The notes under the pieces are model-generated. The model saw only the letters and a list, made by a program, of their open reading frames with translations, was not told the origin of the DNA and ran no database searches. The position numbers and the translations under genes were made by a program. From Octopus vulgaris (Eukaryota), in contig OX597818.1 in the NCBI GenBank assembly GCA_951406725.2, positions 33,232,001-33,296,000 on the forward strand: a stretch of DNA of 64,000 nucleotides, in the 5' to 3' direction. Below, piece after piece: positions 9,826-34,205 of this stretch (its first letter is position 1; every line of letters starts with the position of its first letter).

Positions 9826-10173
9826 TAATGGCCAGATAACCGAAGAGATGGTGGTGTGTATTTCCACCTCGGCATCCGAAACTCAGAGTTTTATCTTGGC
9901 TACCGAATAATTGTCACATATTAGTTTATATATATATATATATATATATATATATATATATATATATATATATATATATATATATATATATGTATGGCTT
10001 AGTAAAATAAATTACTTTGCCACATACTGAACTCATTAGAAATAGTAGCTAAAAAAACTTTTTTAAAACTATTTCTAATACTTAAAGAAAATCTATCTCA
10101 TATAGTGTTTGCTCAATTCAACTCACGAAAGTATGGGGGCAAAGACATTAAAAAATCAAATGCAAAGGTTATT

Positions 10174-10225
10174 TGAGAACGTACGTTTCAAGATTAGTCA
10201 ACTCGACATTTCTATCATCAGCTCA
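10174..10225 (-). ncRNA. Type I hammerhead ribozyme (minimal, palindromic stem III)
   Basis: Minus strand: UGAG-CUGAUGA-UAGAAAUGUCGAGUUGACUAAUCUU-GAAA-CGUACG-UU-CUCA. Stem I UGAG/CUCA; stem II AGA/UCU plus GUCG/UGAC; palindrome AACGUACGUU; GUU triplet. Confidence 0.8.
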
Positions 10226-11230
10226 GAACTCCTTGATTTGATTTGAAAACACTGAAAGTGGGAGCATACCCTTTCGGCTTCTTATCGCTTCTGAAGATCT
10301 GCTCGAAACTAACAGTGCCAGCAAACCCAAAATATGCAAGCGAAGAATTTCTACTCTCCCCTTTCCACCAGCGTGGGTTAAAATCAACAAACACTATGCT
10401 TTTTCGGTAAAATCCGAAGCATTAAATAGAGAGAGATGAATTATAATTTCAACAATTGAGGGTAAAATTAATTAATTATTAATCAATTTCACCAAGTATT
10501 CAGCATGTAAAGGGACCATTTAAGGCGAATTCAAATTATTACATTATATAAAAGGGCTTAGTAAAATAAATTACTTTGCCACATACTGAACTCATTAGAA
10601 ATAGTAGCTAAAAAAACTTTTTAAAACTATTTCTAATACTTAAAGAAAATCTCTCTCATATAGTGTTTGCTCAATTCAACTCACGAAAGTATGGGGGTAA
10701 AGACATTAAAAAATCAAATGCAAAGGTTATTTGAGAACGTACGTTTCAAGATTAGTCCCCCATACTTTCGTGAGTTGAATTAAGCAAACACTATATGAGA
10801 GAGATTTTCTTTAAGTATTAGAAATAGTTTTAAAAAAGTTTTTTTAGCTACTATTTCTAATGAGTTCAGTATGTGGCAAAGTAATTTATTTTACTAAGCC
10901 CTTTTATATAATGTAATAATTTGAATTCGCCTTAAATGGTCCCTTTACATACTGAATACTTGGTGAAATTGATTAATAATTAATTAATTTTACCCTCAAT
11001 TGTTGAAATTATAATTCATCTCTCTCTATTTAATGCTTCGGATTTTACCGAAAAAGCATAGTGTTTGTTGATTTTAACCCACGCTGGTGGAAAGGGGAGA
11101 GTAGAAATTCTTCGCTTGCATATTTTGGGTTTGCTGGCACTGTTAGTTTCGAGCAGATCTTCAGAAGCGATAAGAAGCCGAAAGGGTATGCTCCCACTTT
11201 CAGTGTTTTCAAATCCAAACCAAGGAGTTC

Positions 11231-11282
11231 TGAGCTGATGATAGAAATGTCGAGTTGACTAATCTTGAAACGTACGTTCTCA
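11231..11282 (+). ncRNA. Type I hammerhead ribozyme (inverted copy of 10174-10225)
   Basis: TGAG CTGATGA TAGAAATGTCGAGTTGACTAATCTT GAAA CGTACG TT CTCA read directly on the plus strand. Confidence 0.8.
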
Positions 11283-12654
11283 AATAACCTTTGCATTTGA
11301 TTTTTTAATGTCTTTACCCCCATACTTTCGTGAGTTGAATTGAGCAAACACTATATGAGAGAGATTTTCTTTAAGTATTAGAAATAGTTTTAAAAAAGTT
11401 TTTTTAGCTACTATTTCTAATGAGTTCAGTATGTGGCAAAGTAATTTATTTTACTAAGCCCTTTTATATAATGTAATAATTTGAATTCGCCTTAAATGGT
11501 CCCTTTACATACTGAATACTTGGTGAAATTGATTAATAATTAATTAATTTTACCCTCAATTGTTGAAATTATATATATATATATATGTATGTATGTATGT
11601 ATGTATGTATATTTGTTTATTTATTTAATTTCATGGGAATTAAAAACTTTCGAGTAAACATGGAATAATTCTTGTTGCCAAATTGTCTTCTGATCCCTAG
11701 CCTACAAATTTAAAAAGCGGAAAGTTACATTTAATGATGGGCATTGTTACATTTAATAATGGGTATGTGCTTGTCACATGCAAAGTCATGGAGTCAATAT
11801 GGTTACGGAGGTAATACTTTTGATCATACAACTGCTTGATCAAAGTTGACTTCGAGTAGAAAGCAACAAGGATAGCAGATATTACCTATTTAGAGAAAAG
11901 TGTAATCTGTCATAATGAAACTGATGTAACTCGGTTATTTATAATGCTCAGTGTAAGCAATAATATGCCAAAGGAGTACATATCTGCGATTTATCAACGT
12001 GAATGTATTAGAGACATTTTTACCGACCCGCTAACATCTGTGGTAGCTTTCTTTGGAATAATGATTAGCTTATATCAGCATGTATTTGATATTTTGATTA
12101 TAGTTTGCGATTACATATAATCTTGTATAACTATTTGTCAAAACAAAGCCGTTTATTGGATTGGTTTTAGTGTTTGAATAATATAATCTATTCGTTCAAC
12201 AGACGTATATACACATGTTTATTTAAGATAATGCTATATTTGTATAGTTTCTCAGCCGCAGTAAGAAGCTTTGAGATATTTGGTAGAAATTGAGAAGCAG
12301 ATATTATCTAATCCAGTAAATATTCATGTTACCGTTATCAATAAATAAGCTTTCGTGTTATCATTTCCATATTATTTTGAAATAAGCACATCATCGGAAG
12401 TATGTTACATGAAGAGTCTAAAGGACAGCAGTTGGTTTATATATCATGCTGGACGTATCCAATAAAACACAAAAGAACTAAGTTGTTAGTTGTGTAATGT
12501 AAGTTATTACTTACAGCAGTTACTTATGTATAAGTTTGAATTGAAATAAAAATCAAATTTAAAATGTGACCATTCATAAAAATATCCTAAATTAAAATAT
12601 GCCATATATATGAGTATTTCCACACTAACTTGCATCATGACAGACTCATTGCTG

Positions 12655-30989: not shown

Positions 30990-31147
30990 CTTTATTCCTT
31001 CTTTGTTTATTTCATCGTGTTCCTTTCTGGTGAAGAGTGTGGGCTCGAAACGTAAAAGACTCTCACATTCCCTAGCATCAAATTAATGCACCTGCTTATT
31101 GTATATACACCTGTCTTCGTCTTTTGTTTTTCTGTAAATTTCAACTA
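30990..31147 (+). mobile_element. Short repeat with decayed minimal HHR, ending in a TA/TG microsatellite
   Basis: CTTTCTGGTGAAGAGTGTGGGCTCGAAACGTAAAAGAC at 31023-31060; tail CACCTGTCTTCGTCTTTTGTTTT is shared with the 38105 and 59330 copies. Confidence 0.65.
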
Positions 31148-31355
31148 TATATGTGTGTGTGTGTGTATGAATCCATAGGTATATATATATATATATATAT
31201 ATATATATATATATATATATGTGTGTGTGTGTGTGTGTGTATATATTTATGTATATGTATATATACTCAATAATATTTTACATATAGAGAAATATATGTG
31301 TGTACTTGTGCGTGTGTATGCATGTGTATATATATATATATATATATATATATAT

Positions 31356-31582
31356 AAGGTGGAGAGCTGGCAGAAATGTTAGCGCGCCGGGCGAAATGCT
31401 TAGCGGTATGTCGTCTGTCGTTACGTTCTGAATTCAAATTCAGCCGAGGTCGACTTTGCCTTTCATCCTTTCGGGGTCGATAAATAAAGTGCCAGTTTCG
31501 CACTGGGGTCAATGTAATCGACTTAATCCCTTTGTCTGTCTTTGTTTATCCCCTCTATGTTTAGCCCCTTGTGGGTAATAAT
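31356..31582 (+). mobile_element. SINE family A monomer
   Basis: Head, core and tail intact, between microsatellites. Confidence 0.85.
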
Positions 31583-34205
31583 AATATATATATATATGTG
31601 TGTGTGTGTGTGTGTGTGTGTGTGTGTGTTCGTGTATGTGTATACATATATGTATATGAGTATATACATGAGTGTTTGTCGACGCATATTCGTATAAATA
31701 TTTATGTGCGTATGTGTAACGATGTAAGCGTGAGTGTCTGGCGTGATACAGCAGAAGTATTCAAGTCACTTTCAATCTAAAGCAATAAGTTTATAATCTA
31801 CGGTTGTTTCAACTTTTTTTTTATGAATCTAATTAGTGATTTGTCGATTCAAATTGACATAAGGAATTTGGAAAAGGAAATTATAAAACAAAACTATCTC
31901 CAATAACAACAAATAATAATGATAAAAACCACTAATGATAATATATAACAATAACAATAATAAACAATAATAATAGTAATACTGATAATGTTTAGAATTT
32001 TAAAATAAGCAACATTTAATTCCTATATTTACTTCACGTTATTTTGTTTCATTATTATTATTTTTTTGAATTTTCCTTTTTATCTCCCGGTTTTTGTTTT
32101 AATGTTATCGTAAAGAGTTCAGATTGTGAGGATTGACTTCACCTGATGTTTCAAACAAAAGAAATGACACTTATAATTTGTAAAGTTAGCTTGAAATGTC
32201 ACAACCTATTACAGTTTATCTTTTCCTAGGAAAGGAGGCAATGCAAGTACAGCTTCGGAAGGCAGACAACGGAATTTAAGGTAGATAGGGGGAAAAAAAG
32301 AAAGAAAATGTACACAAAGACACATATGCACTTACTATGTATGCATATATATATATATATATATATATATGTGTGTGTGTGTGTGTGTGTGTGTGTCCGT
32401 GTGTCCGTGTGTCCGTGTGTGTATGCATGTTTGTATATATATATATATATATATGTTTGTGTGTATGTGTGTGTGTTTGTTTGCGTGTGTATGTGTATGT
32501 ATAAGTGTGTATAAATATGTGTTTGTGTGTATGTGTATATGTATGGATGTTTGTATGTATGTATGTATGTAAATATATATATAGAATGATAATAAAATGT
32601 TTAAAACGTGATAAACAGAACTGGGAAATGAGATTGAAATGAACGAAAAAAATACTTATACGTGAAAAGAACACAAAAAAAAAACATAAATGTTAATTTG
32701 TGTTTTTTTTAATATTAGTTATATAAGAAGGAGTGGCAATTAAGAACATAGGAATTTAATAAAAGGAGAAGAAAAAGAAGTCGTGTTTATAAACTAACAA
32801 AAAAAAAAAAAAAGAAACGCGAAAACAAAAACGGAGAAAACAACGAGAATATATTTATAAGAAAGTCAGAGGTTTGGAGGGAATGAATCTGAATCGGAGG
32901 GAATGGGTAAAAACAAAGAATAAATATATGAAGAGTAGAATAAAATAAAGTTAGAAGTAGAATGGAATAACAAAGGAAAAGGACCCATGAAGAAAATAAG
33001 GAAAAACGATGATTAAATAATGAAAGACAATATTTAAATTTTGTGTTTAAACTGGGGTGGGGAAAATAAGTATAAATAAGAATAATAAAATTAGCAATAA
33101 ATGCAGTGGTAAATTCCTCATCATTTTGAAAGAAAATATATATGCCAATAATATGGTGAGTTATACCAAATTATCGGGTTCCTTGCAATGCAATCTATCT
33201 CTATTATCTTTTCAATTCTTCTTCGCATTTAGCCTCTCACCACACACAACCTTTACCTTTCTATCAGTCAATCATTCATATCTTTATCCTTCTCTTCCTT
33301 TTTCTTTCTGACCCCTTTCTCTCTCTCTTTCCCTCCCTCCCTCTCTCCCTCTCGCCCTCTTTCTCTCTCTTTCTCCTACATCAAATATTTTTATGCTGTA
33401 ACATCCTCCTTATCTCTTTCACTCCCTTATTTATTTATTGCTCGTCATAAAACTTAACTTTGTAATTTTCTCTGATTTTTCCATCAATTTTTCCCTTTCT
33501 CTATCTCTCACTCTCTCTATCCCTTCATTTCTCTCATCCACAACGATTCTTCCCCCAGCCCCCACTCCCACCCCCGCACTCCTTACGACAATGCCATTCT
33601 TGAAAATCATTATTGCACCATAAATCCTTACACATTCTTCTTTCTCTTCGTCTGATTCTGCTTTCTTCATGCCCTACCCCCTTTACTCTCTATTTCTGTT
33701 ACCTCTTTTCTGTCTTCCTTTCTGTCCTTTTTCTCGCAGCTTCGCCTTCTATTTCTCCCTCCCTTTCTCCCTTTCTATCTATCTATTTCTCTGTCTGTCC
33801 GTCACATTCTCTGCTCCTCTCTCGTTCCCTCTTTTCTTTATGCCACACGTTCATTTAAATTTTACCGATGAATTTTCCTGCCCATATTCATTCCACTTCT
33901 TAAATAATAACTATTTTTTCGGCGGTGCCCCAGCATGGCCACAGCTCGTGAGCTGAAACTAGATGAAATAATATATATATATATATATATATATATATAT
34001 ATATATATATATATAGATAGATAGATACATACATACATACATACATACATACGTACATATAAATATATATATATATATATATATTAACAATTAAGGAACG
34101 GCCATAATAGGCCATTCACCCACTAGAAATAACAGCCAAAGCTTCTACCGCAAATAAAGATCAATTCCGTAAACAGGAGAAAATTAAAAAAACATTTACC
34201 CTGTA

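Follow-up and report, generated by a model that had tools for sequence, protein, structure and literature searches.

Animal non-LTR retrozymes, as portrayed in the portions of two papers drawn on here (Cervera & de la Pena 2020, PMC7229834; Li, Clavereau & Pollet 2026, bioRxiv 10.64898/2026.07.22.740005), are non-coding, low-GC tandem arrays of units a few hundred bp long, each with a type-I hammerhead, and are proposed to be mobilised by Penelope-like elements (PLEs), from whose pLTRs they would derive. PLEs that carry a C-terminal endonuclease (Neptune/Nematis type) have a tail of 30-40 nt (Craig et al. 2021, PMC8557442). For PAc, a Poseidon element of the green anole, internal initiation in vitro has been described at two sites downstream of the hammerhead, with both target strands nicked and extended; a protein-binding motif was hypothesised rather than defined, with binding narrowed to a 172-nt region (Frangieh et al. 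2024, PMC11167929). Mobilisation of retrozymes by PLE enzymes has so far been argued from co-occurrence and pLTR similarity.

Two families with hammerhead patterns, inserted in (TA)n

Within a 64,000-nucleotide stretch of the Octopus vulgaris genome (the window), we characterised two elements, built from units of 485 bp (family A) and 560 bp (family B), the features of which are collected in Table 1. Both share with the retrozymes of those papers an organisation into short, low-GC, non-coding tandem repeats, from dimers to multimers, with a type-I hammerhead in A and a hammerhead core by pattern in B. No ORF of at least 110 aa overlaps either element, neither has the ORF with reverse transcriptase (RT) and GIY-YIG endonuclease that marks an autonomous PLE, and a protein search of the whole window returned no PLE match. 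Their unit lengths exceed the 150-450 bp given in the part of PMC7229834 used here, but lie inside the 51-972 bp given in that of bioRxiv 10.64898/2026.07.22.740005. Since a type-I hammerhead pattern lies on the minus strand in both units, the RNA sense assigned to the motif in the preliminary description is confirmed.

The A hammerhead, which has a stem II insert of 68 nt and a palindromic stem III, folds into a three-way junction of core and three stems (z -5.35) and is retained across subfamilies with altered stems. In B, many family copies match the pattern for the core, stem I and stem III, and the minimum-energy fold of the unit lacks the hammerhead junction (z +1.06). A hammerhead-like core on the plus strand at 10291 was discarded by eye, as it has neither a valid cleavage triplet nor stem III. 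Rfam searches gave no hammerhead hit in the window at the gathering score or in 8 loci at E<=1, returning only microsatellite-driven noise.

Table 1 Positions of element features within the window
Feature	Position	Strand	Remarks
Family B, left arm	9996..10757	-	RNA 3' end at 9996 is the short end, unusually short for B
Family B, inverted right arm	10757..11573	+	RNA 3' end at 11573 into (TA)n; long end, +154 from motif
Motif, B left arm, terminal copy	10037..10053	-	
Motif, B left arm, internal copy	10596..10612	-	
Motif, B right arm, internal copy	10843..10859	+	
Motif, B right arm, terminal copy	11403..11419	+	
Type-I hammerhead pattern, B left arm	10174..10225	-	Predicted cut between 10178 and 10177, 124 nt 5' of motif
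Type-I hammerhead pattern, B right arm	11231..11282	+	Predicted cut after 11278
(TA)n target, B left flank	9927..9995	.	Imperfect (TA)n
Family A, single arm	34083..36631	-	5 identical units + 124 bp; 3' end 34083, short site +41
Motif, A, terminal copy	34124..34140	-	Recurs each 485 bp up to 36549
Type-I hammerhead, A	34210..34308	-	Predicted cut between 34214 and 34213, 73 nt 5' of motif; in every unit
Stable hairpin between motif and short junction, A	34092..34122	-	3' arm ends in CC ~12 nt before junction; z -5.8, computed on a same-family copy
(TA)n-rich target, A left flank	33971..34084	.	
(TA)n target, A right flank	36632..36686	.	
Degenerate motif, O-like by eye only	59587..59603	+	42-bp near-duplicate of 60451..60467 site
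Degenerate motif, O-like by eye only	60451..60467	+	
Motif with 1 mismatch, in O copy	63300..63316	+	

The B insert at 9996-11573 proved to be a pair of head-to-head inverted arms, a point that the preliminary description had missed, while the 5' end of the A element falls 7 nt inside the next predicted hammerhead cut. More widely, 5' ends cluster by the predicted cut, with 10 of 36 within 40 nt (p ~5e-4, for a cut-off set post hoc). Both families have the Penelope-like combination of partial tandems and an inverted, 5'-truncated arm, together with a preference for (TA)n targets. One short and one long end were found in all 18 two-armed A inserts (two of them atypical) and in 6 of the 7 B inserts, so that, as in Penelope-like elements, the tail is confined to one end.

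These traits, along with a hammerhead in a terminal repeat, recall Neptune/Nematis-type PLEs (PMC8557442), from which A and B differ in lacking an ORF, in a tail of ~100-106 nt (+41 versus +147 in A; ~+55 versus +154 in B) instead of 30-40 bp, and in arms of up to 10 near-identical units. In the portions of the two retrozyme papers considered here (PMC7229834; bioRxiv 10.64898/2026.07.22.740005), junctions are not mapped, and neither two-site ends, inverted arms nor a shared non-ribozyme box are described. A and B, non-coding tandem elements inserted in (TA)n and carrying a type-I hammerhead (predicted by pattern in B), are animal retrozymes of Penelope-like architecture, a class of element that is already known.

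A 17-nt motif common to otherwise unalignable lineages

The preliminary description held that A and B cannot be aligned outside a common 17-nt motif, and our comparison agrees: apart from two short AT-rich patches, the units have nothing else in common. The exact motif occurs 28,829 times genome-wide, versus once in the control, and a metagenome scan for the motif together with (TA)5 found none. On the 3' side of the motif, (TA)5 lies at 32-62 nt in 2,634 of 14,488 cases (18.2%), compared with 324 of 14,341 (2.3%) on the 5' side, making it 8 times commoner 3' than 5'. The proposal of a shared cis signal is borne out to the extent that several lineages have the motif in common and that it stands close to the 3' junction, on its 5' side.

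Besides A, B and the relatives of B (D), these lineages include E and an old dispersed repeat (O) in which we detected no ribozyme; exact searches for O gave 173 copies with a 29-nt pattern and 0 with a 40-nt one. The motif is the best or sole segment common to four otherwise unalignable lineages, and the best match for the pairs A-D1, A-D3, A-O, B-O, D1-O, D3-O, D1-E and E-O. Three further degenerate sites in the window, near 59590, 60455 and 63300, do exist as had been noted, with 1-2 mismatches, but do not lie at (TA)n junctions of the A/B kind. We rejected a universal hairpin around the motif: of 19 representatives, only 6 pair with an upstream arm better than shuffled sequences do (the two from B, 3 of the 7 from D and 1 of the 3 from E, but none from A, O, C or F), and no single RNA structure contains the motif in all families.

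In SINE/LINE systems, unrelated non-autonomous RNAs carry a common short 3' element, through which the reverse transcriptase of the partner would recognise them. The present case is alike in that a short element is common to unrelated non-autonomous RNAs, and differs in that the box is internal and 17 nt long, with copying starting 40-60 or ~145 nt downstream.

Such sharing might instead mark the box as a relic, inherited from a remote ancestor or taken from O by template switching, with no present role in start-site choice. B and D show clear homology outside the motif, A and O have a 33-nt stretch in common, O is very abundant (~45 of 98 sampled exact motif hits), and family chimeras occur (L025, L080), all of which fits this explanation. 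We nevertheless consider it unlikely, because between A, B/D, E and O the box is retained without its flanks, in constant orientation and 32-61 nt from an end, and such selective keeping of 17 nt would be unexpected under neutral inheritance.

Distance from the motif to the junction

In the window, the motif starts at 10037 in B and 34124 in A, and homology to the next tandem unit starts at 9996 and 34083, giving in both cases the offset of 41 nt that had been reported. Both junctions abut (TA)n, an imperfect run at 9996; the 1-2 nt of TA microhomology ascribed to them is present at 34083 (2 nt, AT, so that the offset ranges over 39-41) but is zero at 9996.

A strict ruler, in which the enzyme would bind the box and, whatever the family, begin ~41 nt downstream, was the original proposal. 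Across the genome, short A ends lie at +39 to +41 (39-42 in 36 of the 37 loci among those listed; exactly +41 in 15 of 25 in element coordinates), those of E at 36-40 (n=3) and those of a 107-bp passenger unit and two single loci (L251, L253) at 38-41, while homology among old O copies fades at ~+35 to +40. Short B ends, however, have a median of +54 (n=9, of which the window copy is the shortest in element coordinates) and those of D a median of 53 (n=11); A, B and relatives also have a second, long site ~144-165 nt from the motif (~+147 in A, ~+154 in B) that is used about as frequently as the short one, and look-alikes of the box in coding elements stand 13-18 nt from the end. Collapsing the hairpin, which we tried as a modified ruler and rejected, leaves the spread nearly the same (sd 8.9 to 7.6).

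The predicted genome-wide peak near 41 is real for A, but its sharpness at exactly 41 is inflated by the 107-bp passenger, present in 33 of 77 loci among those listed. Of the three such loci read (L096, L101, L237), L096 and L101 have a common flank inside one larger repeat, which led us to treat the unit as one amplified event and to discard its +41 spacing as independent support. With the passenger removed, an estimated ~27% of junctions at <=62 nt lie at <=42, 21% at 43-49 and 52% at 50-62. A strict ruler is thus improbable, and the agreement of 41 with 41 in the window is partly luck. The data speak against a fixed ruler, and the box is a testable candidate recognition signal.

Local start signature, coding elements and proposed mechanism

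The position of junctions is tied less closely to the motif than to a CC(C/T)T that closes a hairpin and lies 12-18 nt upstream. Median CCYT-to-junction distances are 12-18.5 nt in each of the seven classes of family and site (background, 11-13% of positions), for a signature picked after inspecting those very junctions. Initiation in PAc falls in an AC-rich stem-loop that has no homology to the DNA being cut (PMC11167929), whereas ends here mostly have AT microhomology to (TA)n; like PAc, A and B appear from their sequence to have two internal start sites, in the octopus families ~105 nt apart. Because unrelated passengers have it in common, a candidate box can be seen here, unlike in PAc.

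Intact RT + GIY-YIG elements, among them a family with a 781-aa protein and an upstream ORF, are present in the genome and likewise end in (TA)n; where both ends were seen, their tails are ~35-45 nt, versus ~105 in the retrozyme inserts. The intact motif, expected in autonomous partners, was absent from the coding PLE ends read (62 of 148 GIY-YIG places; 150 of 6,136 candidates scored), and A and B showed no homology to a coding PLE pLTR in the 62 of 148 places read. A degenerate box does occur 13-18 nt before the end in three of seven coding lineages scanned (shuffle p 0.006, 0.02 and <0.002); it is absent in the other four, two sister copies from one positive lineage show it only weakly (p 0.10, 0.14), and in a 400-nt scan it did not reach significance (p 0.21-0.95). 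Motifs beside coding PLEs (L016, L075, L158/L195, L177/L194, L196, L218) were set aside as separate inserts in neighbouring (TA)n runs. L216 and L217 have weak motif matches (12-13 of 27 bits).

That coding PLEs were read without an intact motif, and that the distance of the box varies both to the junction and to the predicted hammerhead cut (73 nt for A and 110-126 nt for B/D), would suit a host factor that reads the box (in RNA stability, circularisation, export or transcription) and boosts RNA accumulation, with proximity to the junction a by-product of layout. Against this, the motif is decayed in O copies chosen by their upstream part (best match 1-7 mismatches, 11 hits), implying that no conservation by the host is at work there; host-level conservation in O was rejected on these 11 hits. 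Together with the degenerate box near the end of three coding lineages, this makes a host factor quite unlikely.

We favour, at a probability of roughly 0.55, the reading that A and B are non-autonomous hammerhead retroelements copied in trans by a PLE RT/GIY-YIG enzyme, with the box recognised and the start chosen locally. A multimeric or circular RNA would be cut at the hammerhead, the PLE enzyme would nick a (TA)n run on both strands, and two cDNAs would be primed internally, the short site serving for one and the long site for the other, with 2-4 nt of AU/TA pairing as an aid. Most likely, the 17-nt box would descend from a PLE 3' end and act as a recognition element that places the enzyme on the RNA, and the exact start would be set ~10-18 nt past a hairpin closing in CC(C/T)T. 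Local choice of this kind would make the motif-to-junction distance family-specific (about 39, 54, 53 and 38) rather than a fixed count.

Only tentatively do we suggest that the box is a PLE-type RT loading signal common to unrelated retrozyme families and O, used by a dimeric enzyme that engages two RNA sites ~105 nt apart, one per nicked strand; two-armed inserts would then almost always have one short and one long end.

In the octopus genome, very young families whose ends have been mapped in large number occur together with a candidate box of 17 nt, a local start signature and candidate enzymes that are intact. The choice of RNA and of internal start sites by PLEs thereby becomes addressable by direct mutagenesis. 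If the box is indeed a common loading signal, it would give Penelope-type enzymes their first defined template-recognition element, and would provide direct structural evidence on how animal retrozymes are mobilised.

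Two elements with hammerhead cores that share a box

The preliminary description of this DNA had reported that two families, A (485-bp units) and B (560-bp units), carry the same 17-nt box (UUURGCURYUAUUUCUA in RNA sense) at an equal offset of 41 nt from their junctions, and the coordinates bear this out. A is present as a single-armed array of five identical units plus 124 bp, with (TA)n runs on both sides, and B as a head-to-head inverted insert in which both RNA 3' ends point outward; the right end of B lies 154 nt beyond the motif, and its left end is without AT microhomology and without a CC(C/T)T-type start feature. 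In both, the core of a type-I hammerhead is present and its stem III is palindromic; an Rfam search detected neither. The three-way junction forms in the predicted fold of A (z -5.35) and is absent from the minimum-energy fold of B (z +1.06). These elements belong to a known class, the retrozyme/Penelope-like passengers.

Coordinates of features in the window
Feature	Position	Strand	Remarks
B insert	9996-11573		motif starts at 10037, 41 nt from repeat start
A array	starts at 34083		motif starts at 34124, 41 nt from repeat start
Differences from X1 and X4 contigs	33983-34760	+	mostly T>C
251-codon open frame	40384-41139	+	putative mariner/Tc1 transposase fragment
Tandem arrays of abundant SINE-like repeat	44640-45184, 47744-48296, 50446-50817		period 180-188; repeat present all through window

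Between 33983 and 34760, contigs from two sequencing runs (X1 and X4), which are guessed to be RNA, differ mostly by T>C (11 of the 13 differences listed in one comparison, 9 of the 12 in the other). One 137-nt contig accounts for many of them, and at four of the T>C positions C was never present in about 125 genomic units. The differences hint at possible A-to-I editing of hammerhead-sense RNA.

Abundance of the box and distance to the junction

The 2.8-Gb genome contains 28,829 exact matches to the motif and one to the reversed pattern, an abundance beyond chance. With each motif counted once, (TA)5 was found at 32-62 nt on the 3' side in 2,634 of 14,488 cases and on the 5' side in 324 of 14,341. 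Family make-up was sampled from 98 of the first 100 matches listed: 47 group into A, B and the B-related D families, with one further lone A fragment, six are a 107-bp unit, and the remainder are mostly an old dispersed repeat of ~210 bp, O. A hammerhead lay upstream of the motif in 23 of the 98, and another small family, E, was found in flanking sequence. When representatives of A, B/D, E and O were compared, the motif was the best or sole common segment in most pairs; homology between B and D extends beyond it, and no motif alignment was found between B and E. Chimeric inserts at two loci (L025, L080), put together from parts of different families or from arms that have been rearranged, suggest template switching between these element RNAs.

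Homology among O copies, which are too old to fix an exact end, fades by about +35 to +40 from the motif, and no hammerhead was found in them. Since partial tandems occur in some of 62 copies and inverted pairs in two (e.g. L239, L095, L092, L244, L250, L008), O may be an ancient Penelope-dependent element. The 107-bp tandem unit (L096, L101, L237) is O-derived and sits within a larger amplified repeat, with many arrays on one contig (C29); it was counted as one amplified event because the two loci compared have a common flank.

When the distance is taken from the motif to where the TA run begins, the medians for short ends were 39 nt in A (n=28, range 14-47), 54 in B (n=9, 40-59), 53 in D (n=11, 44-71) and 38 in E (n=3), and those for long ends 144 in A (n=19), 148 in B (n=11) and 164.5 in D (n=6), so that the single fixed distance of 41 nt proposed earlier does not hold. 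In element coordinates, A ends fall at +41 in 15 of 25 cases and at +147 in 13 of 21, and B short ends at 41 (the window copy), 51, 51, 55 and four times 59, with one alignment disrupted by a duplication; as the other B short ends fall at 51-59, the window copy is an outlier of its family. Genome-wide, reverse-strand motif/(TA)5 counts were 1,028 (12-42 nt), 1,496 (19-49 nt) and 2,634 (32-62 nt). By a rough estimate, once the share of the 107-bp unit is taken out, about 27% of the junctions inside 62 nt fall at up to 42 nt, 21% at 43-49 and 52% at 50-62. The 12-42-nt matches listed represent 77 distinct loci: 37 belong to A (36 of them at 39-42), 33 have the 107-bp unit, at exactly 41 in 32 cases, and seven are neither.

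In each of the 18 two-armed A inserts examined, a short end is paired with a long one; two of these inserts are atypical (ends at +17 and +100). The A arrays were 20 of the top search matches plus those in the first sample, a choice that favours young copies. Six of seven B inserts show the same pairing, the other being long/long. Penelope elements carry a tail of 30-40 nt at one end only (PMC8557442); the tail here is likewise one-sided, but ~105 nt long. Points of 5' truncation bunch around the site of hammerhead cleavage, with 10 of 36 no more than 40 nt away from it (a cut-off picked post hoc; p about 5e-4), which hints that cut RNA serves at times as template.

Coding Penelope-like elements as candidate partners

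Searching for GIY-YIG domains yielded 148 matches, with 150 of 6,136 candidates scored, and 62 distinct places were read (70 records; C-terminal match in 67). In the commonest coding Penelope-like element (PLE) family, an intact 781-aa ORF encodes a reverse transcriptase, a C-terminal GIY-YIG domain and a linker CxxC; the family also shows (TA)n at its end, a tail of ~37 nt and a variant of a hammerhead-like core. In the main coding family (L158-L175, L182, L193-L196, L200) the C3-G8 pair of this core is replaced by U-A; hammerhead variants with that replacement can be active. Ahead of the intact ORF, and overlapping it, copies at L181-L192 (e.g. L184, 67-1504 and 1425-3768) carry another frame that reaches as many as 479 codons; where the two frames overlap, six of seven copies checked have a T-run slippery-like site. 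This upstream frame is possibly a frameshift-linked ORF1, an arrangement that a figure legend in PMC8557442 mentions for some PLEs. The linker CxxC makes the family Neptune/Nematis-like by the description in the same paper.

The motif might also have been expected in autonomous partners, and no coding PLE at the 62 places carried it intact in its own end; only a degenerate form was found, at other spacing. Three coding lineages have this form, at 18, 16 and 13 nt from the junction on its 5' side (p 0.006, 0.02 and <0.002), and in the best of them both copies read contain it; two sister copies show it weakly, and four other coding lineages scanned lack it. A 400-nt scan of five coding ends, which left the two highest-scoring lineages outside, was not significant. 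The resemblance is suggestive of a PLE ancestry for the box; that the box is now a relic or captured segment seems unlikely. Motif-bearing elements are often inserted in (TA)n runs beside coding PLEs (L016, L075, L158, L177, L196, L218), and such nested inserts only mimic a motif and coding PLE forming one element.

What sets the start site

Families A, B, D and E all have a hairpin, closing on CC, in the interval from the motif to the short junction; its stability is high in A and in two D families and marginal elsewhere. Counted back from the junction, the median distance to the nearest CC(C/T)T, a word picked after the junctions had been inspected, is 12-18.5 nt in each of the seven family-by-site classes, long sites included, with a background of 11-13% of positions, and AT microhomology joins most ends to the target. 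In the reading that we favour, at a probability of about 0.55, a PLE protein would load on retrozyme RNA near the box, nick both strands of the (TA)n run and prime once at the short site and once at the long one, in both cases immediately beyond a CC-closed stem and via AU pairing; the role of the box is throughout one that we infer. A lizard PLE is known to initiate internally at two sites, with both strands extended (PMC11167929). That the box is instead a site for a host factor appears distinctly unlikely. Of the earlier proposal of a cis signal fixing the start distance, the shared box and the 3'-side (TA)5 enrichment stand; a box acting as a strict ruler is highly unlikely, since the motif-to-junction distance differs by family and the degenerate coding forms at 13-18 nt argue against fixed spacing.

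No description of the box was found in the literature searched, which left subscription journals, repeat databases and supplements outside; its 13-letter core gave 0 matches, and the word 'ribozyme' does not occur in PMC13282606. A 41-nt ruler is unsupported; what merits specialist testing is the common box, the long tail and the rule of one short and one long end.
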